Shown here in pieces: positions 1,710-57,104 of a DNA stretch of 64,000 bases. The translations under genes and the position numbers were made by a program. The notes below the pieces were generated by a model. It searched no databases, had not been told where the DNA came from, and was given only the letters and a program-made list of their open reading frames with translations. Position 1 is the stretch's first letter. The number at the start of each line of letters is the position of its first letter. Source of the stretch: Patescibacteria group bacterium (GTDB lineage Bacteria; Patescibacteriota; Patescibacteriia; XYB2-FULL-38-15); assembly GCA_041650995.1 (NCBI GenBank), contig JBAZJZ010000001.1, positions 299,302 through 363,301 on the forward strand. Reading direction: 5' to 3'.

Positions 1710-4700
1710 TTAATCCCAACGTAAATCTGTTAAATCTGATTCGATATCATGACCTTTAGCTTCGTTTTCGTATGACTCAGAAATAGACTTAAGCAATGCT
1801 CCAGTTCTTGGCCATCTATTTTTTACAGAATCACTCATAGCCTTATATCTTTGAGATAATTCACGCTCCTGCTTTCCTCCATCCATTAATCCGCGAGAAG
1901 TGACTCCTCGGCTATTATATATTTCAACTTGAACATGTTCGTCAATCGTCTTACTATTGAGCTTCTCTATAAGGTTTCTTACGGCTGTATGAGGCCATAC
2001 TCCATCTGGATCGCTGGGTGCATGGGCTAGTATAAAGCCTATCTGTAAATCGCCACCGATTGTGTGATTTGTTTCGGCACATTTCTCCCTGGCAGATTCG
2101 ACCCACTCAGTCAATTCTTTTTCATCGACACTTCCGTCACTTTTTACGCCCGGCAATAGATACCAAGAGTCTAGTGCTTCGCGGGCAACACGTGCTCGTC
2201 TTTCAAGTAATATATCATCCACTTTTTCTTTTTCCGGATCGGGCGCACGATCATCTCGCCTGTAAATAAATGAAATTAATTGGGCAAAAAAACCTGGGTC
2301 TTTTTGTAATAATCTATGAATCGCAGTAGATGATGAAGTATATCGTTTTAAATCGTCAAAAAGAGCAGCGAAAGGCCATTCTAATTTAACCATTTCTTCC
2401 ATGGAGAGATCATCATTTTTATAGAGCTGATCGAAAACATGACCCAAATGATATTCCTCCATTACACCTGCTTTTAACTTTTTATCCTCAAGCTTTAAAA
2501 TCTCTTCGAGTAATCGTTTAAGTAATATACTTGGAAGTAATAACTTGGGATCGCCCGCAATCCGTAATGCCACCTCTGGCCGTTTTACATCGAGTAGTTT
2601 TTCAATAGCAATAGGTGCTTCCTCGCTTTTGTCAGCCCTAGAATAACCGCTTGCAATTTTCCAATAAGCCTCCTCGGCCTCTTTACCTTGGGAGTTAACG
2701 GCTGACCAGGTTTCCGCGTTTTCTGGTAATCCAAGATACAAAAGCGCACACGCTTCAGATGAATAATTCCCCTTGGTTTTTAAACGTTTGATTTGCTGCT
2801 CAACCCATCCTGGTCCAGCGACCTCAACTCTTCCAAGTGCGTATCCTCGGATAAGAAGCGATGCATCGCCAATTCGGTCGATCATCCCATCTAAATTTTT
2901 TGCATCCTCTTCCTCGTCACAGATTACTTTACCGAGCGCATGACCAAGAACTCCTACGTATTGGATCGTTCCAGCATATTCGATAATTCGCTCTAAGGAT
3001 GCCTTGTCGAGTACCTCACGAGCCACTTTTTCTCGACTCGCATTTATAGTGGTATCCTTTGCGTCATATCCTTTTGGCTCCCCCTCGGGTAATCGTGGCC
3101 ATGGATCACTTAAAAGCCAGCCAACACGGTCCAGTATGTCTTCGGGTTGGAATTTTTCAAGCACTCGATATAGAGCAGGGACTTGTTTTTTTCTTTCATC
3201 ATCTCCATAGCTATTGACCCAATTACACGCCTCTCTAATACATTGGAGCAACCTAATTTTTTCTTCCCTTGAAAATGAATTAATATCGGCTTCTTCGAGT
3301 GTATTTAAAAGTTTTTCCCTGATTTCTAAAGGTAGTCGCGTAAATTCGTCGACGGATGAAATAAGATTCTCTCTTGAACATGCTAAATCGGTAAGTTTCG
3401 GTATTAATCCAGCCACATACTTCTGATGAGTCTCATTGCCTTCTGGCTCAAGTCCACGGCGATTGCCACCCATATCGCGCCAGCGAAACCGGTGTGCTTC
3501 GCTCATAGAACCATCCCCAAAATAATGCTGAGCGAATTTCCAAACAGTCTGCGAATCTTTAACAGTTATTGTGTCCCATGTAGCCAAACGTTCTTCTGGT
3601 GTTGCATACGTTTGTGGAAGCCCAGGAACAAAAATATCTTTCAAACTATTTATGGCTCGATTATTCCAGGTGCCGCCCTTATCAATTCTGGCTAGATCAA
3701 ATAACAAATTCACTGCGCGAAAAAAATATTCTGAGCTCCATGCCATACCCTCTAATGCCCAAAGTAAGCCAGAATGTTTACAGTCACCAAATATACCTCC
3801 CTCGTCAGTCATTAATTCCTGAAAAAGAGCTGGAAATTTTTTTATTTGTTGTTCTGTGGCCTCCATAAAATCATCTGGGGCAGCCTCAGCAAGAAGTGGA
3901 GTGACGTCTTTCAAAGATGCCCAAGTCTCCCATTTATCTGCATTAGCAAAAACTTCTTTGACTACTTGATTAGCAAAGGTTTGTGTAGATGAAATATGCG
4001 AGGAACGATTTCCATATACCGCAATTAGGACTAATGATTCCACTATACCGGTTCTAAGCCATTCTGAGTAAGGGTTTGATTTACCGTAGATTCCCGCTGC
4101 CCATCGTTTATCAGCAGACAATTCATATTTTGGGTCTGTCTTAGTAAGAACTGAAAGGATCGCTCGTTCAAATAGCTTCAAATCAGCTTCAGTCAAATGC
4201 TGTGCGAGCATAAACCATGCATCCAGTGGAGATTTAAGCATCCAAATGCTCCCGACTTTACGTATTGGAGCGTCATCAGTTGAAAGAAATGGTTTTAATT
4301 TTTCAATAAATTTATCGTGCGATTCTCCTGATAAAAGCTCAATAACTTGTCTATCTCCGTCCTTGCGTTCGTCCCAAGAACCAACAAATAAAACAGGCAA
4401 TAAAACCCTGGCTGAGGTTTCTTCCGCCCAGGTTGGGGCCTTTGCACTGGATAAAAATAGATGCCGACGCAGCACCGGAATACTTCTGCCCATATCACGT
4501 GCTATACGTTGAGCCTCTACTTCAGATAGACCATTTTTATTTAAATTCTTCTCAATTATTTCGCGTCTAGGACGGGATAATTCAAAAAGATTGCTTCGAA
4601 AATCGATTGATTTAGAATCAGCGCTAAGAAAAACATAATGACCTTTTTCAACTGCAAAACCTGCTGCTTCCCGGCACTCTGCCGGAGCGGCTATAATAAG

Positions 4701-27256: not shown

Positions 27257-27298
27257 AATTTTTTTATTAATAATTTTTCTACGTAATGTATATTTATC

Positions 27299-27345
27299 AA
27301 AACGGAGAGGGCGAGATTCGGGCTCCTCGGCGCAAGGTCGGCCGC
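27299..27345 (-). repeat. 3'-half pseudo-copy of tRNA-Ser (att-site scar)
   Basis: aaaacggagagggcgagattcg is identical at 27299-27320 and 27417-27438. The homology continues through a variable-arm-like ccttgcgccgagg. Confidence 0.6.
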
Positions 27346-27420
27346 AACGGGCCAGCGGTGTGAGTTCTCATCAAAACCCTCAATTTTTTTCAAATCTGCC
27401 AAAGGGCAAATTTGTAAAAA

Positions 27421-27505
27421 CGGAGAGGGCGAGATTCGAACTCGCGATACCTTGCGGTATGCACGCTTTCCAAGCGTGTGCACTAGGCCACTATGCGACC
27501 TCTCC
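27421..27505 (-). tRNA. tRNA-Ser (anticodon GGA), class II with long variable arm
   Basis: Reverse complement ggagaggtcgcatagtggcctagtgcacacgctTGGAAagcgtgcataccgcaaggtatcgcgagttcgaatctcgccctctccg. Confidence 0.9.
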
Positions 27506-38078: not shown

Positions 38079-39068
38079 CTAAAATCCAACATACTCCACT
38101 TCTTCCTGCAATTGCACGCCAGTCTCGTCGCGGACTTTCATTTTTACCAAACTCGCGAGGGCAATGACATCAGCCGCCGTCGCGCTCCCCGCGTTCACAA
38201 TAAAATTGGCGTGCTTTTCGGAAATTTTCGCTCCACCGATCCGCTTTCCCTTTAAATCACATTGCTCAATAAACCAAGCAGCGGGAATTTTTCCTTTTTG
38301 AATGTAGTCGGTCGGCACATCTTCGTGCGTATGTTCTTTGATAATTTTTATAATCTCCTCCGTCACTTCCACATTTTTAAAAAAAGATCCGGCGCTTGCA
38401 TCAGTCGGAATTTTCCCGTCCCGCGCCGCGAAAATTTTATCCATCTCTTCTTTAATTTTATTTTTATCACCCGGAACTAATTTAAAAACCACTTTCAAAA
38501 CAATCCCTCCTTCTTTTTTAAAAATACTTTCCCGATAACCAAACTTGCAATCTTCTTTTTTATATTTTTCAACTTTCAATTTTTGATTTAACACTTCAAC
38601 TTCTTCTACCGCGTCACTCGTCGCCTTTCCATACGCTCCGGCATTTCCCCGCACCGCCCCGCCGACCATTCCCGGAATCCCCGCCGCCCATTCCAGTCCG
38701 CTCAAACCATTTTCCGCCGCCGCGTTTACAATTTCCGCGAGTTTCACTCCGGCCTCGACTTCAATTTTAGTGTCTTGTATTTTGTATTTTGTATTTTGTA
38801 TTTTAATTATTAAACCATCAAAACCTATATCCGCGAAAAGCACATTACTTCCGCCACTCAAAACAAAAATTTTCAAACCCAAATCTTTCGCCGCCTTTAC
38901 CGCTTTTACAATTTCCTCAGAATTTTTTGCGACAAAAAAATATCTGGCCGGTCCGCCGATTTTAAAAGTGCAGTGATTGGATAGGGGTTCATTTTCCAAA
39001 ACTTCCTCGCCCAATTTTTCCCGCAATTCTTTAATCATATTTCTAATAAAGTTTACCAAAAATAACAA
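38079..39068 (-). CDS. murB: UDP-N-acetylenolpyruvoylglucosamine reductase
   Basis: FAD-binding N-domain (FKIGGPARYF, SGGSNVLF) and MurB C-terminal domain. Confidence 0.85.
   Translation of the reverse strand: MLFLVNFIRNMIKELREKLGEEVLENEPLSNHCTFKIGGPARYFFVAKNSEEIVKAVKAAKDLGLKIFVLSGGSNVLFADIGFDGLIIKIQNTKYKIQDTKIEVEAGVKLAEIVNAAAENGLSGLEWAAGIPGMVGGAVRGNAGAYGKATSDAVEEVEVLNQKLKVEKYKKEDCKFGYRESIFKKEGGIVLKVVFKLVPGDKNKIKEEMDKIFAARDGKIPTDASAGSFFKNVEVTEEIIKIIKEHTHEDVPTDYIQKGKIPAAWFIEQCDLKGKRIGGAKISEKHANFIVNAGSATAADVIALASLVKMKVRDETGVQLQEEVEYVGF
38777..38804. repeat. (gtatttt)x4 heptanucleotide tandem repeat inside murB
   Basis: Read directly; encodes KIQNTKYKIQDTK in MurB. Confidence 0.8.
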
Positions 39069-39080
39069 GTAAATACAAGA

Positions 39081-39288
39081 CCATCATAACAGCCTAAAGG
39101 CTGTCAGTCCGTTATTGGGGAGTGACACCCTTTAGGGTGTTAATTAAGTCCTCACTAAAGTGAGGAGTCCGTTGAAATTGGAGTCCATTATAACAGCCTA
39201 AAGGCTGTCAGTCCGTTATTGGGGAGTGACACCCTTTAGGGTGTTAATTAAGTCCTCACTAAAGTGAGGAGTCCGTTGAAATTGGAGT
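39081..39288. repeat. 2 x 104-bp tandem duplication (1 mismatch), each unit carrying three short tetraloop hairpins
   Basis: cagccTAAAggctg, acacccTTTAgggtgt, cctcacTAAAgtgagg per unit; a fourth hairpin tcccgacTTTAgtcggga follows at 39290-39307. Confidence 0.85.
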
Positions 39289-39377
39289 CCCGACTTTAGT
39301 CGGGATTTTGTCTTAAATAAAAAAACCCGCACCAGCCGAACTCCAGATGAACCGGAATTGACCGATGCGGGCGTACT

Positions 39378-39803
39378 TCACTCCTTGTCTTCGCGTGGCT
39401 CGCTCTTCGGGAAGAAGGCGAGAATTTTCTTGAGCACCTCCCCTGCCTCTCGTCGGGATTCTTCGTACTGTCTGTCGCTCTGGTCCGGCTTTTTCTCGAG
39501 AACAAACTCACCGCAAGCGGGGCAAAGCCAGCCCACAATAATCGTCTGGACGCGAAAGAGAGGGATCCTCGTAGCCCTGTCCTTGGCCAGAGAGAATTCG
39601 AACATTCCCCCGCCGCATTCATGCGCCTTGTCGGACGGGTTCAGGTTGCAGCGAACGTTTTCTCTGCTTTCGTCGTCAACAGATCCCGCGTAGAGACGAC
39701 GACCGCGCCGAAGAGAAAGATCAGTGCGGCCGGTCAACATGAAGACCAGCCATGTGCTCCAAATACCCACCAAGGCGCCAACCACCAACGAGGTCATGTC
39801 CAT
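39378..39803 (-). CDS. GC-rich small membrane protein with CxxC pair (141 aa), probably horizontally acquired
   Basis: Visibly GC-richer than flanks; TM helix and CGGG...CPAC; own terminator and promoter-like motif. Confidence 0.5.
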   Translation of the reverse strand: MDMTSLVVGALVGIWSTWLVFMLTGRTDLSLRRGRRLYAGSVDDESRENVRCNLNPSDKAHECGGGMFEFSLAKDRATRIPLFRVQTIIVGWLCPACGEFVLEKKPDQSDRQYEESRREAGEVLKKILAFFPKSEPREDKE

Positions 39804-39851
39804 GGGTTTTTCTCTTTCTACCCGAATGCCAATCCACTAACTGACTTTATA

Positions 39852-39880
39852 AACTAACATGATTTTAAAAAATTGTCAAG
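39852..39880 (-). promoter_or_regulatory. conserved 29-bp promoter-like motif (minus sense cTTGACAattttttaaaatcatgtTAGTTt); second copy at 47433-47462
   Basis: Near-identical sequence upstream of two unrelated GC-rich small membrane protein genes; contains TTGACA-17-TAnGTT. Confidence 0.5.
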
Positions 39881-39928
39881 AATTTTAAGCTTGTCTTAAA
39901 TCACAATCTTCTATAAACTTTAAATATC

Positions 39929-40693
39929 ATGAATCATAAAAAACCTGAGTCCGACGATCCGTTGGCCGAAAAAAAATATTCGCCGGTTCGAGGGATTGTC
40001 CATAAATATCCTGACCGCGTGATTTTTTGTCCAACCTTCGCTTGTCCCTCGCGTTGTTCTTTTTGTTTTAGAAAAAATCTTGTTGATGGCAAAAACGGAC
40101 GGCTTTCCGAAAAAGAAATGGCCGCGGCAATTGATTATATTAAAAAAGATAAAAAAATACGCGAGGTAATTTTGTCCGGCGGCGACCCCTTATTTTTGAA
40201 TGATAAAACTTTGTCGGATATTTTAAAAAAACTTCACGCCATTCCGCATGTTCGGCTGCTGCGAATTCACACCCGGATCCCAGTTACTCTACCCTCACGT
40301 GTCACAAAAAAATTAGCGGCCATTTTAAAAAAATCAAAACCGCTTTGGGTTGTTGTTCACATAAATCACCCGAAAGAAATTACGCCGAAATTTAGGGAAG
40401 CCGCCGCCAAATTCAAAGTAGTCGGCATTCCCCTTCTCTCTCAATCGGTTTTACTTCGCGACGTAAACGACAACGCCGAAACTTTAAAAAAATTATTTTA
40501 CGGACTCGTGAAACTCGGTATCAAACCTTATTATCTGCACCAATGTGATCCGGCACGAGGCACAAAAAAATATTGGGTTTCAATAAAAAAAGGTAAAAAA
40601 ATAATGCGCCAATTGCGCAAAGAAATTTCCGGAATTTGTCTTCCGACTTATGTCCAAGACTCGCCTCATTGCGGCAAAACGCCACTATACTAA
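39929..40693 (+). CDS. KamA-family radical SAM protein (lysine 2,3-aminomutase-like, short form)
   Basis: YPDRVIFCPTFACPSRCSFCFR (CxxxCxxC) and GGDPL motifs. Confidence 0.65.
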   Translation: MNHKKPESDDPLAEKKYSPVRGIVHKYPDRVIFCPTFACPSRCSFCFRKNLVDGKNGRLSEKEMAAAIDYIKKDKKIREVILSGGDPLFLNDKTLSDILKKLHAIPHVRLLRIHTRIPVTLPSRVTKKLAAILKKSKPLWVVVHINHPKEITPKFREAAAKFKVVGIPLLSQSVLLRDVNDNAETLKKLFYGLVKLGIKPYYLHQCDPARGTKKYWVSIKKGKKIMRQLRKEISGICLPTYVQDSPHCGKTPLY

Positions 40694-42061
40694 TTTTTTC
40701 AACAACAATTCTCCAACTCGCCAAACGTCTCCCGCGCCCATTGTGATTACCACATCTCCACTTTTCACTTCTTTCGCCAAAAACTCCGCCGCTTCAGAAA
40801 TAGTCGAAATATAGAGAGCATCCTTGCCCTCTTTTTTTATTAATTCAACGAGCTCGCCGGAACTTACTCCGCCGGCGACTTCGCGCGCCGAACCATAAAT
40901 ATCAATCACAATTGTTTTATCAACCGCGCCAAATGATTTTGCAAAATCAGAAAGCAACGCTTTAGTTCTTGTAAAAGTGTGCGGATGGAAAACGCACCAA
41001 ATTCGCCGGCCAGGATATTTTTGCCGCGCCGCTTCAAGCGTTACTTTAATTTCTGTTGGATGATGACCGTAATCGTCAATCACTAAAACGCCGCCCGCCT
41101 CTGCTTTTATTTCAAACCGCCGAACCGCGCCTGAAAATTTTTCTAATGCCTCGCGAATTTTTTCTAAATCAAAACCCAACTCTCTCGCCGTGGCGATTAC
41201 CGCCAAAGCGTTTGCCACATTATGATTACCGAATAACTGAATTTTAAAAATCCCATGCGATTCGCCATATTCCAAAACTTCAAATTCCATTCCGCAGACG
41301 CGCGCTAAAATATTCTCTGCTCGCCAGTCGCCAGCTGTCAATCCATAGGAAATTATTTTACACTTTGCCGACTTAGAAATTTCTAAAACACTTTTATCAT
41401 CCCCGCACGCTACCAAAAATCCGTCTACTGGAATTTTTTCCACAAACTTTCTGAAAGCATCATTATATTCTTCTGGAGTTTTGAAAAAATCCGGATGATC
41501 ATATTCCGCGCTCGTCAAAATTATTGCCCGCGGATCAAAATACAAAAATTTATTTTGATATTCATCAGCTTCAATAACAACATACTTTCCTCCGCCAGCC
41601 CGGGCGTTTCCTCCGAGTTGCGGCACCGCCGAACCAACAATCACCGTTGGATCCGCGCCCAATTCCCGCAAAACAAATCCGAGCATTGCCGTGGTTGTCG
41701 TTTTTCCGTGCGTGCCAGAAATCGCGATCCCAAAACCTTCTTTCAAAATTTGTCCGAGCGCCTCCGGATAACTTAAAATCGCAACTCCACTTTTCCGCGC
41801 CGCGGCCAATTCCGGATTTTCTTCAGTATAAGCCGTGGAATAAATTACTAAATCCGGTTTTTCCGCCGCTAAATTTTTTGCATCAAATCCTTCATAAAAT
41901 TTTATTCCATTTTTCGCCAAAACTTCGTCAGTAAAAAACTTCTCATGCGTATCGGAACCAGTAACTTCCGCTCCGCGCAATTTAAAAACTTGGGCAATCG
42001 CGGTCATGCCTACGCCCTTTATGCCGATGAAATAAATTTTCTTGGAATCTTTTAAATTCAT
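40685..42061 (-). CDS. murC: UDP-N-acetylmuramate--L-alanine ligase
   Basis: IYFIGIKGVGMTAIAQ, GTHGKTTTT P-loop, Mur ligase C-domain. Confidence 0.9.
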   Translation of the reverse strand: MNLKDSKKIYFIGIKGVGMTAIAQVFKLRGAEVTGSDTHEKFFTDEVLAKNGIKFYEGFDAKNLAAEKPDLVIYSTAYTEENPELAAARKSGVAILSYPEALGQILKEGFGIAISGTHGKTTTTAMLGFVLRELGADPTVIVGSAVPQLGGNARAGGGKYVVIEADEYQNKFLYFDPRAIILTSAEYDHPDFFKTPEEYNDAFRKFVEKIPVDGFLVACGDDKSVLEISKSAKCKIISYGLTAGDWRAENILARVCGMEFEVLEYGESHGIFKIQLFGNHNVANALAVIATARELGFDLEKIREALEKFSGAVRRFEIKAEAGGVLVIDDYGHHPTEIKVTLEAARQKYPGRRIWCVFHPHTFTRTKALLSDFAKSFGAVDKTIVIDIYGSAREVAGGVSSGELVELIKKEGKDALYISTISEAAEFLAKEVKSGDVVITMGAGDVWRVGELLLKKLV

Positions 42062-42071
42062 CTCTCACAGA

Positions 42072-42160
42072 CTGTCATTCTCGCCCCGCATCAAGTGCGG
42101 GGTAAACTCCAGCGGGAATCCAGGAATAGGAACTGGATCCCCGATCAGGTCGGGGATGAC
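42072..42160. mobile_element. MITE-like palindromic element with TGTCAT termini (89 bp)
   Basis: tgtcattctcgccccg...cggggatgaca; internal hairpins; shares gcgggaatccag with the inverted repeats of the GIY-YIG element. Confidence 0.5.
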
Positions 42161-42185
42161 AATATTATTTTGATTTTTCATCCTA

Positions 42186-42917
42186 TCACTTTTTCGCGAT
42201 TGTGACAATATTCTTCCCGTTCCAAAAATGCGCTTTTTTATCATCAATTGAATAAAAATTTTCTAAAATTTCAAAGCCTGATTCTTTGACGAGACGTTTC
42301 AATTCCCGTAAAGTAAAAGCGTGAACATAGCGTTCGGCCATAACCTTACCGGTTTCAGAACTCTTCCAAGGAACCGAGGCATCGCCAAAATCCAAATCGC
42401 TCCGGCCTAATAATTTTAAAATAATATTTTTCGTGACAAGCATCAGGTATTTTTTTCGGAATAGTGCCCAGTTGGTCATAATTAAAAAGCCGTTTGGCGC
42501 AAGAACCCGGCCGACATTTTCCAAAACTTTCTTGCGCAAATCCCGGGATGGTATGTGGTGCAAAGTGGCAATCAAAAAAACCACGTTATATTTTTCACCT
42601 TTCCACCAATCCAAATTTATCGCGTCGCCCAATAAAAATTTCCGAGATGCGTTTTCACCCCATCTTTTTTTAGCAAGATCCAAAAGTTCTGACGAATTAT
42701 CAACGCCGGTATAATCGATTGACTTATCTTTTAGAACCTCGTACAATCTTCCATTGCCGCAACCCAAATCAAGCACACGATCGCCCGACCCTAAACTTTC
42801 GGCAAAATCACGCATCTCATCCCAAAATTTTTGTCTTTTTGCCGAAAACTGAGGCGCGATAATCGCGTAATCAGTCTTAACTTTATTTAATATTTTTCCC
42901 GCGACTTCTTTTTTCAT
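42186..42917 (-). CDS. class I SAM-dependent methyltransferase
   Basis: VLDLGCGNGR motif I. Confidence 0.7.
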   Translation of the reverse strand: MKKEVAGKILNKVKTDYAIIAPQFSAKRQKFWDEMRDFAESLGSGDRVLDLGCGNGRLYEVLKDKSIDYTGVDNSSELLDLAKKRWGENASRKFLLGDAINLDWWKGEKYNVVFLIATLHHIPSRDLRKKVLENVGRVLAPNGFLIMTNWALFRKKYLMLVTKNIILKLLGRSDLDFGDASVPWKSSETGKVMAERYVHAFTLRELKRLVKESGFEILENFYSIDDKKAHFWNGKNIVTIAKK

Positions 42918-42991
42918 TTTAATTATTGCCTGAGCTTGTCGAAGGCCCTTCGACTCACTTCGTTCGTTCAGGGAATAAAATATAAAGTCAG

Positions 42992-44560
42992 ATGAACACC
43001 ATCGAAACCATCACTAAAAAAATTATCAAATCACGGCCAGAAAGCCGTGCCGACTTGGCGCAGATTAAACGCCAGACCGCGGGTAAATTTAAATTACCGC
43101 CGCCTCTCTCCGCTGATATTTTTAAAATTTATAAAAAACTTTTGCGGCAGAAAAAAATTAAACGCGACGAACGGCTGGAATTGCTTTTGAAAAAACGCGA
43201 AGTGCGGACAATTTCCGGCGTCGCGCCCATTGCCGTTTTAACAAAATTCTATCCTTGTCCTGGAAAATGCGCATATTGCCCAACAGAAAAAAACATGCCA
43301 AAATCTTATCTTTCCAACGAACCGGCTGTAATGCGCGCCATCACTTTTAATTTTGATCCCCAAAAACAAGTTGCCGGGAGAATTAAGGTTTTGGAAATGA
43401 ACGGACACCCCACCGACAAACTGGAATTGATTGTTATCGGCGGAACCTGGTCTGCTCTGCCCGACCGCTACCAAAAATGGTTTATCCAAAAATGTTTTGA
43501 CGGGGCGAACGGCAGAAAATCTTCTTCACTTGCCTCGGCGCAAAAAATAAACGAAACTGCCAAACACAGAATTATCGGCATTACTCTTGAAACCCGCCCT
43601 GATTATATTACACCCGTTGAAATAAAGCGAATGCGCGAACTTGGAGCCACAAGAGTTGAACTCGGCGTCCAAAGCATTTACAATTCTATCTTACAGCGAA
43701 ACCGCCGCGGGCACAATGTCGCCGAAACTATCCGCGCCACGAAATTGCTAAAAGACGCTGGCTTTAAAATTTGTTATCACATGATGCCCAATCTTCCAGG
43801 TTCCACACTAGCTAAAGATTTTAAAATGTTCCGCGAAATTTTTACGAATCCAGATTTCCAGTCGGATATGCTTAAAATTTATCCCTGCGTTGTGACGCGC
43901 GATTCAGAAATTTATAAATGGTGGAAACAGGGGAAATATAAACCATACACAGAAAAACAACTCGTGGAGCTGCTCATTAATATTAAAAAATTTCTCCCGC
44001 CTTACGTCCGCGTGAATCGTTTAATCCGCGACATCCCGAGCCCAAGCATTGCCGCGGGAAATAAAGTTTCTAATCTGCGCGAAGTTGTTACCGCGGAAAT
44101 GGCGCAACGCGGGCTACGATGCAAATGCATCCGCTGCCGGGAAGTCGGCCACCAAAAAAATCTCAAACACTCTGCTCCTAAACTATCCGTAAAAAAATAT
44201 CTGGCATCAGACGGCACGGAATATTTTATAAGTTTTGATTCGCCAGATAAAAAAATACTCTACGCTTTTGTCAGATTACGAATTCCTAACTTAAAAACCG
44301 ATCCCATTTTACCAGAGTTAAAAAATGCAGCGCTTATCCGTGAATTGCACACTTACGGTCATCTTGTTCCAATTGATAAAAAATCTCCCGGCGCGACACA
44401 GCATCTTGGACTGGGAAAAAAATTAATGGCCGAAGCGGAAAAAATCGCGCGAAAATCAGGCGTAAAAAAAATGGCCGTCATCTCCGGCGTCGGCGTCCGT
44501 GAATACTACAAAAAAATTGGATATCAAAAAGACGGAACTTACGTGACAAAAAATTTATAA
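42992..44560 (+). CDS. Elp3-like radical SAM/GNAT protein (tRNA wobble uridine modification family)
   Basis: Radical SAM CPGKCAYCP cluster and C-terminal acetyltransferase fold. Confidence 0.8.
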   Translation: MNTIETITKKIIKSRPESRADLAQIKRQTAGKFKLPPPLSADIFKIYKKLLRQKKIKRDERLELLLKKREVRTISGVAPIAVLTKFYPCPGKCAYCPTEKNMPKSYLSNEPAVMRAITFNFDPQKQVAGRIKVLEMNGHPTDKLELIVIGGTWSALPDRYQKWFIQKCFDGANGRKSSSLASAQKINETAKHRIIGITLETRPDYITPVEIKRMRELGATRVELGVQSIYNSILQRNRRGHNVAETIRATKLLKDAGFKICYHMMPNLPGSTLAKDFKMFREIFTNPDFQSDMLKIYPCVVTRDSEIYKWWKQGKYKPYTEKQLVELLINIKKFLPPYVRVNRLIRDIPSPSIAAGNKVSNLREVVTAEMAQRGLRCKCIRCREVGHQKNLKHSAPKLSVKKYLASDGTEYFISFDSPDKKILYAFVRLRIPNLKTDPILPELKNAALIRELHTYGHLVPIDKKSPGATQHLGLGKKLMAEAEKIARKSGVKKMAVISGVGVREYYKKIGYQKDGTYVTKNL

Positions 44561-44625
44561 AGAAAGCCCGCCTAACCGGTGGGTTTTTGAAATAAAAAAC
44601 TCCCGGGAATTTCACTTCACGGGAG

Positions 44626-44979
44626 TCACTCATTACGGCAAGAAAGAAAACCGTTGTCTTCCGCCGTTTCGAGAAAATCCAACATTTCCTCGCAGACCGA
44701 GCCGCAATACGGATCGCTCCGCCCCCTTTCAATGTAGGCGCCGAACTCCTCGCGTAAGCGCTGTAAATCCTGAAGGGCGTTACGTATAATTGCTCTTCTC
44801 TTTTCAGAGGACAACCCGATGCCCTGACAAGAGGCCGCCTCCATGCGCGCTATCGAAATATGCAGATGCAGCGCTAGAACCGCGTCGGCGCTCGGTCGAA
44901 CCACCTCGGTTTTGGCAGTGCAACCAACGAACGCAGCCAAGAGAATCGCGTAAATTTTCTTCATCGCCCCTCCTCTCAT
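44626..44979 (-). CDS. GC-rich small lipoprotein (117 aa), paralogue of the next gene
   Basis: Lipobox FVGC; shares the C-terminal DPYCGSVCEEMLDFLETAEDNGF..CR motif with the 136-aa neighbour. Confidence 0.45.
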   Translation of the reverse strand: MRGGAMKKIYAILLAAFVGCTAKTEVVRPSADAVLALHLHISIARMEAASCQGIGLSSEKRRAIIRNALQDLQRLREEFGAYIERGRSDPYCGSVCEEMLDFLETAEDNGFLSCRNE

Positions 44980-45386
44980 GGCCGGCAGAAAAAACCGTTC
45001 TGCCTTGCCTCTTCCAGGAACTTAGTTATCTCGAGGCAGACTGGACCGCAGTAACAGTCAGTCCGTCCCGCCGCGTGGTAAACGTCGAACTCCGCACCGA
45101 GACGACTCACGTCGCGCTCGGCAGCATTTCTCACGGCTTGTCTTGCACCAACTTCCGACATCGCTGCCTCGCAGATTCCGACTTCTGTCCGCCAAGCAGC
45201 CAGCTGGTAGTACTGTCCGGCAGTTCCGCCAAGTGTTGGTTCGCAGGTAACTACCTCGACTGTAACCGGATCAGTTGGCTCTGACAAACTTCCGCCACAA
45301 CCGAAAACGAGAAACAGGAGCCCCAGAATGGCGCCGATTCCTCCGCCATAGTAACGCCGTTGTAGCGTGTATCCACTCTGTTCCAT
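44976..45386 (-). CDS. GC-rich small lipoprotein (136 aa), paralogue
   Basis: Lipobox VFGC; DCYCGPVCLEITKFLEEARQNGFFCR. Confidence 0.45.
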   Translation of the reverse strand: MEQSGYTLQRRYYGGGIGAILGLLFLVFGCGGSLSEPTDPVTVEVVTCEPTLGGTAGQYYQLAAWRTEVGICEAAMSEVGARQAVRNAAERDVSRLGAEFDVYHAAGRTDCYCGPVCLEITKFLEEARQNGFFCRP

Positions 45387-45488
45387 CCCTCAACCCTCCT
45401 TCTATCGCTCGTTTCAGGCGAATATAAAATTTTCTAACTTTTTTTGCTTTTTGTCAAGGAGAGATGTAAAATAAAAACACCCATCCTT

Positions 45489-45899
45489 GTCATTCCCGCG
45501 AAAGCGGGAATCCAGTTTTATGAAAAATTATTATGTTTATATAATGACAAACCGACGAAATGGTACGCTATACATTGGAGTAACAAATGATTTAACCCGC
45601 AGAGTTTACGAACACAAACATAATTTAGCAGATGGATTTACTAAAAAGTATAACATACACCTATTGGTGTATTACGAGGGAACGCCCAATGTTGTAAGCT
45701 CTATTCAAAGAGAAAAACAACTCAAGAAATGGAATAGAAAATGGAAACTTGCACTAATTGAAAAAATTAATCCCGAATGGGAAGATTTATATAATAAAAT
45801 AATTCAATGACTACACTCTTTGTCATCCTCAATTTAAAGCCACAAGTGGCCTTGACCCGGAGATCCAGCGATCTGGATTCCCGCTTTCGCGGGAATGAC
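45489..45899. mobile_element. small element with perfect 27-bp terminal inverted repeats carrying a GIY-YIG nuclease gene
   Basis: gtcattcccgcgaaagcgggaatccag (45489-45515) and its exact reverse complement ctggattcccgctttcgcgggaatgac (45873-45899). Confidence 0.65.
45520..45810 (+). CDS. GIY-YIG domain nuclease (UPF0213/URI-like)
   Basis: YYVYIMTNRRNGTLYIGVTNDLTRRVYEH GIY-YIG core. The track ORF start at 45487 would translate the inverted repeat, so the start is more likely the Met at 45520. Confidence 0.7.
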   Translation: MKNYYVYIMTNRRNGTLYIGVTNDLTRRVYEHKHNLADGFTKKYNIHLLVYYEGTPNVVSSIQREKQLKKWNRKWKLALIEKINPEWEDLYNKIIQ

Positions 45900-45913
45900 A
45901 TTGTGGGTCGGGC

Positions 45914-47209
45914 ATGACAAATACAACTATGTCTTTTTTATCAAAATTCGATCCCGAAATCGCAAACGCGATTGAAAATGAAATTAACCGCCAGCGGTCT
46001 GGTCTCGAAATGATCGCTTCGGAAAATATCGTTTCCCGCGCAGTTTTGGAAGCCATGGGCACGCCACTCACCAATAAATATTCCGAGGGTTATCCTGGCA
46101 AACGTTATTATGGTGGAAATCAGTTTATTGACGTCTCGGAAAATCTGGCCATTGACCGCGCAAAAAAAATCTTTAACGCCGAGCATGCCAATGTCCAGCC
46201 GCACTCCGGCAGCCAGGCCAACGCCGCGGCTTATTTGGCGCTTTTGAATCCTGGCGACAAAATTTTAGCCATGAACTTGGCGCACGGCGGACATCTTTCG
46301 CACGGCTCGCCTGTAAATTTTTCTGGAAAATTTTATAATGTTGTTTTTTACGGGGTGGACAAAGATACCGGCCGAATTGATATGGATGAAGTCAAAGAAA
46401 TCGCGCTTCGGGAAAAACCGCGCCTGATTTTGACTGGAGCTTCGGCTTATCCTCGCGAGATTGATTTTGCCGCTTTTCAAAAAATTGCTGATGAAGTTGG
46501 AGCGTATTTAATGGCTGACATTGCTCATATCGCCGGACTCGTTGCCGCGAAAATTCATCCTAATCCAATTCCCGTTTGCGACGTTGTGACGACCACGACT
46601 CACAAAACTTTACGCGGTCCGCGCGGCGCTTTAATTTTATCAAAAATTGCCGACCGCCTGCGCCCGGAAGATAAAAAAAATCTGGCGCAAAAAATTGACT
46701 CGGCCGTTTTCCCGGGAATGCAAGGCGGTCCGCTTGAACATATAATCGCCGCCAAAGCCGTGGCCTTTCTCGAAGCGCTCCAGCCGGATTTCATTGAATA
46801 CCAAAAACAAATTGTAAAAAATGCCAAAGTTCTGGCGGAGACATTGCTTGGCGGCGGATTAAAATTAGTTTCCGGCGGCACGGATAATCATCTGATTTTG
46901 ATTGACCTCTCCGAGACCGGCCTCGGAGGAAAACAAGTTGAAGACGCGCTGGGCGAAGTGGAAATTTATGTCAACAAAAACATGATTCCTTTTGACACTA
47001 GAAAACCGACCGATCCTTCCGGCATTCGTCTTGGCACCCCAGCCTTGACTACTCGCGGCATGAAAGAAGATGAAATGAAAAAAGTTGGCGAAATGATTGT
47101 AAAAATTATAAAAAATATTTCCGATGAAAATGTAAAAAAAGAAGTCCGCGAAAGTGTTCACGGACTTGTGACGAAGTTCCCGATCTATCCGGGGCTGACT
47201 GTTTTGTAG
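45914..47209 (+). CDS. glyA: serine hydroxymethyltransferase
   Basis: [30 protein letters not shown]-lysine region. The true start may be the Met at 45929. Confidence 0.9.
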
Positions 47210-47222
47210 TAGAGGCGCCCGG

Positions 47223-47411
47223 CTACTTCATACGAGGCTTGGCCATGCTAGCGATCAAGAGTGAAACAATGATCAGCTCAACTGGCCGCACGTATTCCGT
47301 AATACCTACGGTGAAGTGCCGATAGATAATCCACCCGAATATCCCGATGTAGGGAATGAGGAAATCCGCCACTTGCCACACACGCCTAATCAGGCTTTTC
47401 TTCTCACCCAT
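47223..47411 (-). CDS. GC-rich small membrane protein (62 aa)
   Basis: ORF track; RBS aaggagg; preceded by the conserved promoter-like motif. Confidence 0.4.
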   Translation of the reverse strand: MGEKKSLIRRVWQVADFLIPYIGIFGWIIYRHFTVGITEYVRPVELIIVSLLIASMAKPRMK

Positions 47412-47432
47412 TTCTGTCCTCCTTTCCGAGAA

Positions 47433-47462
47433 AACTTAACATGATTTTAAAAAAATGTCAAG
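47433..47462 (-). promoter_or_regulatory. second copy of the conserved promoter-like motif (minus sense cTTGACAtttttttaaaatcatgtTAAGTt)
   Basis: See 39852-39880. Confidence 0.5.
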
Positions 47463-47465
47463 GAT

Positions 47466-48290
47466 ATGCCCGCTCAAATAATTGATGGCAAAAAAATCGC
47501 CGCGGAAATCCGCGTGGAAATAAAAAAAGAAATCGCTGAATCGGGAATTACACCCGGTTTGGCCGTGATTTTAGTTGGGGCTGATCCGGCCTCGCATTTG
47601 TATGTTGGCCTTAAAGAAAAAGCCGCCGCCGAAGCTGGCATTCATTTTGAAAAATATTTATTTTTCGCCACTGAGCCAGAAGAAAAAATTACTATGAAAA
47701 TTCAGGAACTAAACGCCCGGCCGGATATCCACGGAATCCTGGTTCAGCTTCCCCTGCCAGGCGGCTACGACGAAAGTAAAATCATCGCCGCGATTGATCC
47801 AAAAAAAGACGCCGATGGTTTTCATCCGGAAAATATTAAAAAACTTATTTCTGCCGCGCCGGAAATTATTCCACCAGTCGTCTCTGGAATTTTAAAATTG
47901 ATTGAATCAACCGGCGTGGAATTAAAAAATAAAAAAATCGCCATCTTGGCGAACAGCGAAATTCTAGCAAAACCGCTGGAAAAAATTCTAACAGGTAATG
48001 ATATCCAAACCATCATCGCCCCGGAAACATTGACCACAGAAATTGCCGACGCCGATATCATTATCTCGGCGCTTGGCCGAGCAAAAATTATAACTGCCGA
48101 CGCCATAAAACCCGGCGCGATTTTGGTTGATGTCGGAACAACTCGGCTGGATGACGGCACAACGGTCGGCGACGTTGACTTTGAATCAGTAGCCGCGAAG
48201 GCCAGCTGGATTACGCCCGTTCCCGGAGGCGTTGGACCAATGACCGTGGCAATGCTCTTGCAAAATGTCGTGAACATCGCAAAAAAATAA
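47466..48290 (+). CDS. folD: bifunctional methylenetetrahydrofolate dehydrogenase/cyclohydrolase
   Basis: IIDGKKIA...ILVQLPLP, GVGPMTVAML. Confidence 0.9.
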   Translation: MPAQIIDGKKIAAEIRVEIKKEIAESGITPGLAVILVGADPASHLYVGLKEKAAAEAGIHFEKYLFFATEPEEKITMKIQELNARPDIHGILVQLPLPGGYDESKIIAAIDPKKDADGFHPENIKKLISAAPEIIPPVVSGILKLIESTGVELKNKKIAILANSEILAKPLEKILTGNDIQTIIAPETLTTEIADADIIISALGRAKIITADAIKPGAILVDVGTTRLDDGTTVGDVDFESVAAKASWITPVPGGVGPMTVAMLLQNVVNIAKK

Positions 48291-52485: not shown

Positions 52486-52566
52486 AATTTATTTTTGAGT
52501 ATTAAAAAATTAACATTCAACTATTAAAACATCTATTTAAAAAACTGTCAACTTCTTCCAGTTTTC

Positions 52567-54211: not shown

Positions 54212-54493
54212 CTAGCCGATCTTCCGAGGATTTGTTGCGACGAACACCAAGTACGCCGCGACGAGCAGAACGACGTTCAGGAGGACGGCACCGAGATTGG
54301 CGGCCGGTCTCCACCAGGCGTTCGGCAACGCCAGATAGAACTCTCTGTAGATCGTCGCCCCTCCCGCGAGGACAGCCACGATCGTGAACACGAAGGCTCC
54401 ACCTGGAGAACCTTGCGCCCAGCGGAGGATGATCATCGCCCCGAAGGCAACGATCATCACCCAGAACGCGATCGTTCCGATTGCTTCGAGCAT
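54212..54493 (-). CDS. GC-rich small membrane protein (93 aa)
   Basis: ORF track; three TM helices. Confidence 0.45.
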   Translation of the reverse strand: MLEAIGTIAFWVMIVAFGAMIILRWAQGSPGGAFVFTIVAVLAGGATIYREFYLALPNAWWRPAANLGAVLLNVVLLVAAYLVFVATNPRKIG

Positions 54494-54505
54494 CTTCTTC
54501 TCTTT

Positions 54506-54640
54506 CTACCCGCCGAGGACCAGCAAGGTCCCGACGAAAGCGAAAAAGACAATGAACAGAAAAACATTGCCCTCGGCTCCGTCTTCTGCCCCACCGACAA
54601 CCATGAGCCGCCGGCGTTCCAGTTTTTGCACTCCTTTCAT
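54506..54640 (-). CDS. GC-rich small membrane protein (~45 aa, MKGVQKLERRR...)
   Basis: The upstream part of the track ORF is translation of the leader repeat; the start is trimmed to the first Met downstream of the repeat. Confidence 0.35.
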   Translation of the reverse strand: MKGVQKLERRRLMVVGGAEDGAEGNVFLFIVFFAFVGTLLVLGG

Positions 54641-54898
54641 GAGAATGTACAGGTACGCTCCTACCACCAAAACTCCCAATGCCAACCTGAACAATCTCTT
54701 TTCCTCCTTCTTTGAAAGCACCACTTCTCGTGATGCCCTCGAAAAAGGGCGGAACTCATTTTTTAGGTGGGTTCCGCTAACTCGCTTAAGTTGCTCGTCG
54801 CGCATTACTGCGTGATTTCGCAAAACTTTAGCGAGCGCTCAACCTAGGATGGTTGAACTTTCCTGGCATACTTTGGAAGCCAGGACGTTGGGAAGGAA
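54641..54898 (-). repeat. leader repeat unit 1 (homologous to 55286-55586 and 56067-56333)
   Basis: Shared blocks gatgccctcgaaa.agggcggaactcatt..ggtgggttccgct...gcaagccgctcaacctaggatggttgaactttcctggcatactttgg. Confidence 0.8.
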
Positions 54899-55285
54899 CT
54901 ACGAGCAGCCCTCGTCGACCGTGCCGTCGCAGTCGTCATCGACCCTATTGCAGTCCTCTTCGGTCGAGACGAATTGCGACTTGCAGGCAGTCCACTCACG
55001 GTTCAGGCAGGTGCTCATGCCGATTGCGCAAATGCCACGCGCGCCATCCACCGAACAAGTCTGTACCGAACCCTCCGGCACCTCCTCTAGACGGCCGTCC
55101 TCGTAGACGAGGCACCCTCCTTCTACCGCCTCCGTACCCGCCGGCTCGTCGATGATAGGCTGGCTCGTACCGCCGAAATCGAAAGTGTAGTACTGCGAGA
55201 GCCAAGCCGCGAGACCGATGCCGACGAGAATCAATCCCACGACGATCGCCGCGACCTCCGCTCTCTTCGACCTCTGCGTCATCAT
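54899..55285 (-). CDS. GC-rich secreted Cys-rich protein with C-terminal DDDCDGTVDEGC metal-binding-like motif (128 aa)
   Basis: Signal anchor; 10 Cys; RBS aggaaggaagggg. Confidence 0.5.
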   Translation of the reverse strand: MMTQRSKRAEVAAIVVGLILVGIGLAAWLSQYYTFDFGGTSQPIIDEPAGTEAVEGGCLVYEDGRLEEVPEGSVQTCSVDGARGICAIGMSTCLNREWTACKSQFVSTEEDCNRVDDDCDGTVDEGCS

Positions 55286-55586
55286 ATCTCTCCCTCCCCT
55301 TCCTTCCTTGTTTGTTGCCCAATGAAGGGCAGTGTAAAGAACTTTGTCCCGGACACGCGAGATATTCGCGGCCGAGAAACTTTCCTCTCTTCGAGCTCAC
55401 CACTTGCATGATGCCCTCGAAAGAAGGCGGAACTCATTTTTGAGGTGGGTTCCGCTGGAGCTCGCTTGGTTGCTTGTCGCACACTTGCGTGTGAGATTTT
55501 ACAAACCTTTGCAAGCCGCTCAACCTAGGATGGTTGAACTTTCCTGGCATACTTTGGTTTGAATTTGCCAGGACGTTTGGAAGGAG
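55286..55586 (-). repeat. leader repeat unit 2
   Basis: See unit 1. Confidence 0.8.
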
Positions 55587-56066
55587 CTACGAACTGCAGC
55601 CAAGCATCTGCGGCGTCAGCAACAGATTGCCTTCGCCGCCGATCCACGGATGGCGAATCACTGCCGGTTCCACCGAGAGACCGTCAACGGTAACCATGAG
55701 ACGGTCGAGCATGCCCAGATCGCCGTACCAGCGTCCGTCGGTACGTCGAGCATTGACCTCGACGCCTCCCGCGCGACCGCAGGCCTGCGCCTTGGTCAGC
55801 CGCACCTCGAACATGGCCGGCCCGTAGGACACATCTCCGTTCGAGGCATCACCGGGATCGACTGCGTGAAAGATGTAAATCTCGGCCGACTGCTCATCCT
55901 TGGAGTTAATCCGAACCGTCACGGAGTCCCGCTGCTTGTCCGCGCGCTTGTCTGCCAGCAGAGCCAGAAGACCCAAGCTCAACATGCCGAACATGAAAAA
56001 GCAAACCGCACCCACAAGCCACCAATTGCGCCACCAGTTGCTGAGAGCCTTCAGTGCCTTCTTCAT
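55587..56066 (-). CDS. GC-rich membrane-anchored protein (~160 aa from MKKALKALSNWW...)
   Basis: RBS aaggagaag; the longer track ORF (to 56162) runs into the repeat. Confidence 0.45.
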   Translation of the reverse strand: MKKALKALSNWWRNWWLVGAVCFFMFGMLSLGLLALLADKRADKQRDSVTVRINSKDEQSAEIYIFHAVDPGDASNGDVSYGPAMFEVRLTKAQACGRAGGVEVNARRTDGRWYGDLGMLDRLMVTVDGLSVEPAVIRHPWIGGEGNLLLTPQMLGCSS

Positions 56067-56333
56067 CTTCTTCTCCTTTTTCCTTCCTTGTTGTAAAGAA
56101 CTTTGTCCCGGACACGCGATGATTCGCGCGCCGAGAAAACTTCCTCTCTTCGAAAGTACCACTTTCGTGATGCCCTCGAAAAAGGGCGGAACTCATTGTG
56201 GTGGGTTCCGCTAAACTTGCTTGGTTGCTTGTCGCACATTACTGTATGATTTTGCAAAACCTTGCAAGCCGCTCAACCTAGGATGGTTGAACTTTCCTGG
56301 CATACTTTGGAAGCCAGGACGTTGGGAAGGAAG
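56067..56333 (-). repeat. leader repeat unit 3
   Basis: See unit 1. Confidence 0.8.
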
Positions 56334-56693
56334 CTATGGCACACATTCGCAGATGCCGTAGTCACAGTAGCCAAACTTCTCTCTGCAAGAATTCCGGCAC
56401 TCTTCATCCCTGCAGAATCTCTCATCGTTCAGGTCGCACCGTTCGCCGATGCCATCATTGTCCGCATCGAACTGGTCGGGGTTAGGATCAATAGGACAGT
56501 TGTCCCAACGATCTGGAATCTTGTCGCCATCCTGATCCTTTATCATGACCGGCTGAACAACCACGCCCCGCCAGTGGAGAGAAGCCGCTCGGGAAACTTC
56601 CAGGCAAAAACCGCGCAACGCGCAGAAAAACGTGAAAACGACGAACGTGAACGACGCTACCGTGATTACTGTCCTTGCCACTTTTCCATTCAT
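56334..56693 (-). CDS. GC-rich secreted protein with thrombospondin-type-3-like Asp-rich Ca-binding repeats and Cys-rich C-terminus (119 aa)
   Basis: DKIPDRWDNCPIDPNPDQFDADNDGIGERCDLNDE; signal peptide. Confidence 0.5.
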   Translation of the reverse strand: MNGKVARTVITVASFTFVVFTFFCALRGFCLEVSRAASLHWRGVVVQPVMIKDQDGDKIPDRWDNCPIDPNPDQFDADNDGIGERCDLNDERFCRDEECRNSCREKFGYCDYGICECVP

Positions 56694-56786
56694 TATGTTT
56701 TTACTTCCTTATTTCATCCGCCAAAGGCGGACTGGTCAATGAACTATTCCCTTGTCGCACCATGCGGTTTAGGAAATCTCTTCAGT

Positions 56787-56867
56787 GGCGCTGGTGGGAA
56801 TTGAACCCACTCTGACCCGGTCGACCCTTGCGGGCTCTCTCCTTGAGACTTTTTGACCGGCAGCGCC
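56787..56867 (-). other. tRNA-like element (T-arm gtgggttcaattcccac plus 7-bp acceptor-like stem ggcgctg/cagcgcc) lacking a normal D/anticodon arm
   Basis: Minus-sense ggcgctgccggtcaaaaagtctcaaggagagagcccgcaagggtcgaccgggtcagagtgggttcaattcccaccagcgcc-a; a second long-range stem ccggtc/gaccgg replaces the D/anticodon region. Confidence 0.3.
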
Positions 56868-56955
56868 CCTCGAGCAGAAACTCGTGCTTCTGCCCTGGCT
56901 TGAATCGATGAATACTCATCGCCTCAAGTCATTTAGACAAACAAAAACGGGCGAG

Positions 56956-57104
56956 GAGAGAATCCGCCCGAAATTAAATTATTTGTACAAATAATTTAGG
57001 GTGGTTTCCCGCCAAATCGGCGGGTCTCTCTCAAACCAACTTATCTTATTGTCAACAAATTAGTATACCATAAAAACAACAATCTGTCAAGAGTTTTTGA
57101 CAGA
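56956..57104 (-). ncRNA. candidate ~110-nt small RNA: near-consensus promoter (TTGACA-17-TATACT, 57076-57104) to an intrinsic terminator (cgggcggattctctcctcgcccg plus T5, 56956-56984)
   Basis: Hexamers and spacing read directly. The -35 box lies in a 7-bp perfect inverted repeat ctgtcaa-gagttt-ttgacag (57098-57117). Internal hairpin cccgccgatttggcggg. Confidence 0.4.

Follow-up and report, generated by a model that had tools for sequence, protein, structure and literature searches.

Two near-identical sites on the minus strand of the 64,000-nt stretch analysed here (the window), at 39852-39880 (site 1) and 47433-47462 (site 2), lie upstream of two small-protein genes. We consider it likely, with good confidence, that each copy is the core promoter (approximately -36 to -5) of a monocistronic small-protein gene, and that both promoters are old and vertically inherited and do not belong to a recent cassette. 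Rereading of the window bore out the near-identity and the positions of the two sites as they were given in the preliminary description. A 25-nt core, AACATGATTTTAAAAAAWTGTCAAG, is common to both sites with one mismatch; it occurs exactly twice in the window (39856-39880 and 47438-47462), and none of 100 dinucleotide shuffles gave any match. No further site within three mismatches of this core was found in the 64-kb window. On the minus strand, the likeness extends over ~33 nt and reads C-TTGACA-[A/T]TTTTTTAAAATCATGT-TA[-/A]GTTT, with one mismatch and one indel. Beyond this stretch the flanks of the two sites are unrelated on both sides, and the likeness stops near the predicted transcription start.

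The two sites have the same promoter architecture. At site 1 (core promoter 39851-39880, minus strand), a C and the -35 element TTGACA (39879-39874) are followed by the 17-nt spacer ATTTTTTAAAATCATGT and the -10 hexamer TAGTTT (39856-39851), with a predicted transcription start at ~39846-39844 on the same strand. At site 2 (47433-47462, minus strand), a C and TTGACA (47461-47456) are followed by the 17-nt spacer TTTTTTTAAAATCATGT and the hexamer TAAGTT (47438-47433); the predicted start, also on the minus strand, is at ~47427-47425 and is followed by a 14-15-nt leader that contains GGAGG. The minus-strand layout proposed earlier, cTTGACA-N17-TA(A/G)GTT, was right, and its -10 hexamers had to be corrected to TAGTTT and TAAGTT. 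The -35 element matches the consensus at 6/6 positions in both sites, and the spacers both end in TGT, which places a TG in the extended -10 position (39859-39858 at site 1 and 47441-47440 at site 2). The -10 hexamers retain T1, A2 and T6 but match TATAAT at just three of six positions. Downstream of each promoter core, at a distance of 21-48 nt, come a ribosome-binding site and an orphan open reading frame rich in GC3, and the ribosome-binding sites and ATGs fall 15-47 nt past the end of the shared similarity. GGAGG stands 7 nt before the ATG of the site 2 gene (orf62). AGGAG or GGAGG precedes the site 1 gene (orf141) in three related loci (L003, L005 and L048), and the corresponding sequence is weaker in the window.

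The earlier suggestion that the motif is promoter-like gains support from the -35 element, the spacer length, the TG, the key positions of the -10 hexamer, and the Shine-Dalgarno sequence and ATG downstream. We read the sites as promoters because relatives keep the -35 element and the T-A-T of the -10 hexamer, because the similarity ends at the predicted start, and because 23/25 database matches carry the -10 T. We infer promoter activity and promoter strength from an architecture, a conservation and a synteny that can be read directly in the DNA. In the putative mechanism, a housekeeping sigma-70-type RNA polymerase holoenzyme would read each copy. Sigma region 4 would touch the perfect -35 TTGACA, sigma region 3 the TG that a single base separates from the -10 hexamer, and sigma region 2 the weak -10 element (TAGTTT or TAAGTT), whose weakness would be offset by the TG and by the perfect -35 at the optimal 17-nt spacing. 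Transcription would begin ~7 nt downstream of the -10 hexamer on the minus strand, with leaders of 42 nt for orf141 and 15 nt for orf62. Two other functions were considered and rejected. A bidirectional promoter at site 2 would find no room for a plus-strand -10 element before the folD ATG. A reading of the motif as an RNA element was set aside on account of its insignificant fold on both strands (-1.2 to -5.5 kcal/mol, z from -1.5 to +0.8, not better than shuffles) and the lack of an Rfam match, as a search of 39000-47500 returned nothing even at E <= 1.

Site 1 belongs to a compact unit in the intergenic slot between murB and a KamA-family gene (slot A). Its gene, orf141 (39378-39803, minus strand), encodes an orphan 141-aa protein with an N-terminal hydrophobic segment and four cysteines, including a CxxC near the C-terminus. 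Just three to four homologues were found among 5.8 and 1.8 billion proteins. An intrinsic terminator at 39318-39372 (minus strand), composed of a 21-bp hairpin and U7 (-33.9 kcal/mol, z = -6.0), follows the gene, and therefore orf141 with its strong terminator constitutes a self-contained transcription unit. Site 1 stands divergently to a KamA-family radical SAM gene (39929-40693, plus strand; TIGR00238, 274.8 bits against a cut-off of 199.2). A KamA-family gene adjoins every orf141 homologue that has a readable upstream flank; the L005 sequence begins at the promoter, and murB lies downstream of its orf141 homologue. The stretch that separates murB from the orf141 terminator also contains a tandem pair of 104-nt units built of short hairpins (39071-39278; 95% identity); there is apparently one such unit in L005, and there is none in L006 or L044-L047.

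The orf141 homologues allow the age of the site 1 promoter to be assessed. In L005, whose orf141 protein is 82% identical, the promoter is identical to site 1. In L003 and L004 (87% protein identity), TTGACA, the TG and a TAATAT -10 element are kept and the spacer has drifted; the L003 spacer is 18 nt long and diverged from that of site 1, with the TG still present. In L048, 27/30 promoter bases (90%) are kept despite an orf141 protein identity of only 45%, and the site 1 promoter must therefore be old. The terminator is 62/68 identical between L048 and the window, the orf141 coding sequence has 56% nucleotide identity, and the adjacent KamA gene has 77.5%. Across the whole unit (39310-39880 in the window against 560-1150 in L048), promoter and terminator, both ~90% conserved, have far outlasted the coding sequence. 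Change is thus much faster in the coding part than in its expression signals, and this suggests diversifying or relaxed selection on the protein.

Slot A differs in content among relatives. It is occupied by the orf141 family in the window, L003, L005 and L048, by a 79/109-aa family in L006 and L047, and by an 86/98-aa family in L044 and L046, and it is empty in L045. A comparison with relatives that lack the gene had been proposed at the outset, and it showed that in slot A the motif occurs only alongside orf141 and is absent where the slot is empty or otherwise filled, as expected of the gene's own promoter. A separate observation concerns the slot A promoter of L046 (~2650-2720, minus strand), which has a run of ~10 G inside the spacer of TTGACA...TAAAAT before the 86-aa gene; a homopolymer of this kind can render a promoter phase-variable.

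Site 2 lies in the glyA-folD spacer (slot B), a ~250-nt region that holds an antisense small open reading frame in six genomes. In the window this is orf62 (47223-47411, minus strand), which encodes 62 aa with two hydrophobic segments and whose protein corresponds to the NCBI locus tag WC445_01960 from a Patescibacteria MAG. The divergent neighbour is folD (47466-48290, plus strand); these two neighbours, the KamA-family gene and folD, are the housekeeping genes against which the sites had been said to stand divergently, and both identifications held. At site 2, 4 nt separate the -35 box from the folD ATG, and the box overlaps the Shine-Dalgarno sequence of that gene, leaving folD no room for a promoter of its own before orf62. 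Therefore, transcripts from glyA probably continue into folD, in opposition to a strong convergent promoter, and such read-through meeting the orf62 promoter could give rise to antisense or transcriptional interference.

The slot B promoter can be aligned across relatives. In L006-L009, with an orf62 protein identity of 85%, 29/30 promoter bases are kept, and in the 4-kb alignment of the window with L006 the promoter is the most conserved 60-nt bin (98%). More distant syntenic genomes (L044-L047) were reached through FolD homologues of 88-75% identity. There, different-looking small antisense open reading frames with two hydrophobic segments fill the slot, and their promoters align with site 2, the -35 element abutting or overlapping the folD start codon. 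The promoter and an antisense small gene with two transmembrane segments are thus found in six related genomes, with FolD identity ranging from 100% down to 75%, and on this comparison site 2 is a putative promoter of old, vertical inheritance. We also considered whether the GC-rich open reading frames might be non-coding, as orf62 of the window differs from that of L006 at 4/5/6 sites in the three codon positions, with no excess in the third; orf62 is 92% conserved there, compared with ~82% for its flanks. This reading was rejected in view of the strong Shine-Dalgarno sites, the nine replacements in L006, all of them conservative or hydrophobic, and the presence of open reading frames with two hydrophobic segments in the slot of every relative.

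Among 11 promoter sequences from five loci, TTGACA is invariant and the extended -10 TG nearly so; TTGACA is likewise invariant in all orthologues that carry orf141 or orf62 genes. The T-A-T positions of the -10 element are kept in the orthologous sites and the TG in most, and the spacers differ between loci and, in L003, within one locus. Intergenic TTGACA is scarce, with just eight occurrences in the 64 kb, and five of these precede the four GC-rich islands and rplU. The promoter of rplU (L21) is a looser third member of the group (52523-52551, minus strand; TTGACA-GTTTTTTAAATAGATGT-TTTAAT): the layout TTGACA-N-TTTTTTAAA-NNN-ATGTT, present at both sites, is found upstream of this native gene of normal composition as well. 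The pattern TTGACANTTTTTTAAANNNATGTT has three matches in the window against 0.11 expected, the third being at 52528-52551 (minus strand), before rplU. The rplU promoter is conserved in L006 and L044, and in L045-L047 the spacer differs while the -35 and -10 elements stay. Another promoter of the census, cTTGACA-N17-GAAAAT at 45429-45457 (minus strand), has a different spacer, stands before the GC-rich pair orf136/orf117 and is conserved in L006 and L044-L047. The strongest consensus promoter of the window, TTGACA-17-(TGg)TATACT at 57062-57090 (minus strand), heads a conserved leader RNA and a 3.4-kb GC-rich island.

Additionally, the pattern TTGACANNTTTTNAAAANCATGTTA was scanned in GTDB representative genomes, JGI metagenomes and IMG/VR, the first two without the source genome. 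It was found at 10, 20 and 5 loci, respectively, all of them singletons in unrelated taxa. A T at -10 position 6, a position left free in the search, is present in those 23 of the 25 distinct genome and metagenome matches (P = 4e-9). Most of these matches resemble TGTTATAAT (TGtTAtaat), some stand directly before tRNA genes, and all five viral matches read TGTTAT(A/G)AT. The exact site 2 25-mer recurs in L022 and L037, and L049 is one base off. Judged by their letters, the database matches look like generic consensus promoters. The motif therefore falls within the range of sequences that textbook strong promoters occupy, and it can arise independently. According to the preliminary description, a motif found upstream of many ordinary genes would be a generic promoter; this applies in part, through the native gene rplU.

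How the two sites came to be so alike is a separate matter from their function. The chance estimate assumes that both are TTGACA-N17-TG promoters and compares the 15 free spacer positions, 14 of which match. The probability of such a match is ~8e-8 per pair with intergenic base composition and ~1e-5 per pair if spacers are 85% A+T; the expected number of such pairs is ~0.01 to 1 genome-wide and <0.01 within the window. Chance alone is thus an unlikely source of the 14/15 identity, which is well above what generic promoter constraints explain. Beyond the contacts of RNA polymerase, common descent or a bound factor may be conserved in the spacer. The near-identity reflects either an ancient duplication or reuse of a promoter under purifying selection, or convergence on one favoured design of strong promoter, its spacer a T-tract followed by an A-tract; we infer either origin from comparison of the loci. 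The rplU case and the independent database occurrences point to convergence or to a lineage preference for the T-tract/A-tract spacer.

Duplication or reuse has a substantial, though less than even, chance of being the correct account. The resident slot B promoter would have been copied, or transferred by gene conversion at a later time, to drive the orf141 family once that gene had taken up slot A, acting as a small "mobile promoter"; as this concerns origin, it is compatible with promoter function. Two promoters of independent origin would be expected to resemble each other far less than this pair does, and within the clade the type found in slot B is the ancestral one. Slot A is a hot spot of turnover, with three unrelated families and one empty state, and the motif is found there only with orf141. 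Moreover, site 1 of the window differs from site 2 of the window by one spacer mismatch and from its L048 orthologue by three, a weak hint at possible later homogenisation, and promoter reuse upstream of non-homologous genes has already been described (PMC3575422). However, the sites share only ~33 nt, exactly the footprint of the polymerase, so that no neutral flanking sequence is left that could prove copying. The same 25-mer has also appeared independently in unrelated organisms (in L022 and L037, and one base off in L049), and the rplU spacer seemingly gained its T6A3 form with no sign of copying.

A shared operator is an unlikely source of the resemblance. Here the spacer, or the imperfect dyad CTTGACAT-N12-ATGTTAAG, would bind one regulator of both small membrane proteins. 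Site 2 forms a palindrome with 18-nt arms and 83% complementarity, and the spacers have been kept over appreciable divergence (no change in L005, one in L006 and three in L048). However, the dyad consists mostly of the built-in symmetry of TTGACA and TGTTAA; an indel breaks it at site 1, and neither L044-L047 nor L003 preserves it. The rplU promoter has the spacer in common yet rplU is an unlikely regulon partner, and no regulator gene was found next to site 1 or site 2. It would be a long shot that one factor keeps both promoters alike, perhaps together with other cTTGACA promoters of the islands, and co-controls clade-specific small membrane or secreted proteins. If this were true, very fast-evolving small proteins in fixed intergenic slots would form a dedicated, diversifying surface or host-interaction regulon; orf62 would be nested antisense within the glyA-folD operon, where its strong promoter could also throttle folD.

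The preliminary description had favoured a portable promoter or insertion module travelling with foreign genes, and this proposal is not supported: a native gene, rplU, has the same layout, the promoters are old and syntenic, and no mobile hallmarks were found in the sequence read. A portable insertion module or miniature mobile element, with an outward-facing promoter and foreign GC-rich genes, is highly improbable. In its favour, the downstream genes deviate in composition, the content of slot A is variable (the whole intergenic region, promoter included, is non-homologous between the window and L006), and the orf141 unit stands between the two copies of an 11-nt direct repeat, TTGTCTTAAAT. 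Against it, this 11-mer is not conserved in L003 or L048 and is near or within chance expectation, synteny of the slot B unit extends over six genomes, the GC3-rich character is common to the small slot genes across the clade, and native rplU is driven by a similar promoter. Neither terminal inverted repeats nor a conserved target duplication was found around the motif, the sole palindrome being the internal symmetry of the -35 and -10 elements. Within the ~74 kb read of the source genome (the window and L040, which covers the 10 kb past its end, out of at least 567 kb), there are two close copies and one loose copy, with no extra close copies, and no further copies were found in the syntenic 20-kb loci of relatives.

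The compositional oddity that had been ascribed to the two genes is real. The GC content is 0.57 for orf141 and 0.49 for orf62, with GC3 values of 0.68 and 0.65, compared with 0.42 for the GC of the window and 0.32-0.48 for the GC3 of housekeeping genes. A BLASTP comparison of orf141 with orf62 gave no alignment, and the proteins are unrelated and non-paralogous. GC3 richness is common to the slot genes in relatives and is thus no mark of recent import; recombination-associated GC bias is one idea for its cause. A phage or defence origin of the small genes was rejected, as searches of PHROG, Pfam and NCBIfam gave no matches. In the window as a whole, all eight small orphan open reading frames (39378-39803, 44626-45386, 47223-47411 and 54212-56693) are on the minus strand, with GC3 values of 0.54-0.78 against 0.29-0.48 for their neighbours, and their counterparts in relatives are mostly GC3-rich too.

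Several other elements were observed in the window. Behind the promoter at 57062-57090 lies a ~115-nt non-coding RNA (56925-57061, minus strand) with three hairpins, the last of which is a terminator. It is 93-94% identical in L006 and L047, though FolD of L047 is just 75% identical, and the L045 version has an extra hairpin inserted in loop 1. The first stem has a GAGAGAG that could base-pair with a CUCUC of the terminator, an arrangement like that of a riboswitch or attenuator; no Rfam family was matched at E <= 0.2. A ~190-nt GC-rich intergenic element occurs three times on the minus strand (54722-54897, 55388-55585 and 56150-56331), where it separates different small genes within the island at 53.6-57 kb; a single copy is found in L006 (2598-2785), and the element also occurs in L045 (16750-16935). 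RNAalifold gave 47 pairs, 11 with compensatory double changes, and one 7-bp helix is nearly fully swapped between copies. From this modelled fold, the element looks like an unannotated structured RNA leader that recurs before unrelated GC-rich genes. At 56783-56867 (minus strand), a tRNA-like fold with an acceptor stem, a coaxial stem and the T-arm GUGGGUUCAAUUCCCAC ends in ACUG, not CCA. It folds at -43.5 kcal/mol (z = -3.5), gave a sub-threshold tmRNA/mascRNA match in Rfam (24 bits) and no ARAGORN call, and is 92% identical in L047 and missing at the same place in L006.

Repeats were noted at three further places. Perfect 28-nt inverted repeats bracket a GIY-YIG nuclease gene (45487-45810); one copy is at 45488-45515 and the other at 45873-45900, and both include the hairpin ATTCCCGC-GAAA-GCGGGAAT. 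The unit (45488-45900) is absent as a whole from L006, solitary copies of the 28-mer occur elsewhere in L044, and the unit looks like a small mobile GIY-YIG or REP-like element. The 3' end of tRNA-Ser(GGA) has a second copy 118 nt further downstream (27292-27325 and 27410-27443), with 88% identity across 34 nt; the duplication resembles the scar of an element integrated into a tRNA. Finally, a 63-nt direct repeat (550-612 and 1053-1115; 94% identical, 503 nt apart) lies close to the 3' ends of two small open reading frames that adjoin each other on the minus strand and are probably tandem paralogues.

Taken alone, the finding that each site is a core promoter is of limited importance, and the nearby RNA elements look more promising. 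It is a small, old case of one core promoter common to two unrelated genes, and it offers an example of predicted strong promoters in an uncultivated Patescibacteria lineage, with a perfect -35 element, an extended -10 element and a T-tract/A-tract spacer. The strongest consensus promoters in the 64 kb would mostly drive fast-evolving GC3-rich orphan genes in conserved slots, not housekeeping operons, and two unannotated conserved structured RNAs adjoin those promoters. Strong promoters and structured RNAs could guide searches for expressed accessory genes and regulatory RNAs in the genomes of candidate phyla.

Among known systems, the putative mobile promoters of Matus-Garcia, Nijveen and van Passel (2012) are defined operationally by an identity of 80% or more across a minimum of 50 nt between -150 and -50 (commentary, PMC3575422). 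As in those cases, highly similar upstream sequence stands before non-homologous genes of one genome, without a known mobile element. Unlike them, the pair shares only ~33 nt (-36 to -5), short of the 50-nt criterion, and both copies are ancient, not recent. The promoter-bearing miniature elements named in the same commentary include Correia, ERIC and REPIN (PMC3575422). The motif resembles these elements in being short, repeated intergenic DNA that could give its neighbours a strong promoter; they measure 100-200 nt, with terminal inverted repeats, target duplications and tens to hundreds of copies, and none of these features is seen at the motif. With the operator of a small regulon, the sites have in common the same ~30-nt sequence upstream of two unlinked genes and a partial dyad symmetry, but the dyad is unconserved in orthologues and coincides with the symmetry of the -35 and extended -10 elements. 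Extended -10 ("TGn") promoters of sigma-70/sigma-A, including the Gram-positive "-16 region" type, are an established class. Both sites agree with this class in TTGACA, the 17-nt spacer, the TGn and the T1, A2 and T6 of the -10 element, and they depart from it in their weak hexamers (TAGTTT and TAAGTT). The class does not require a spacer shared almost whole by two promoters of one genome, and that sharing is the feature of the pair described here.
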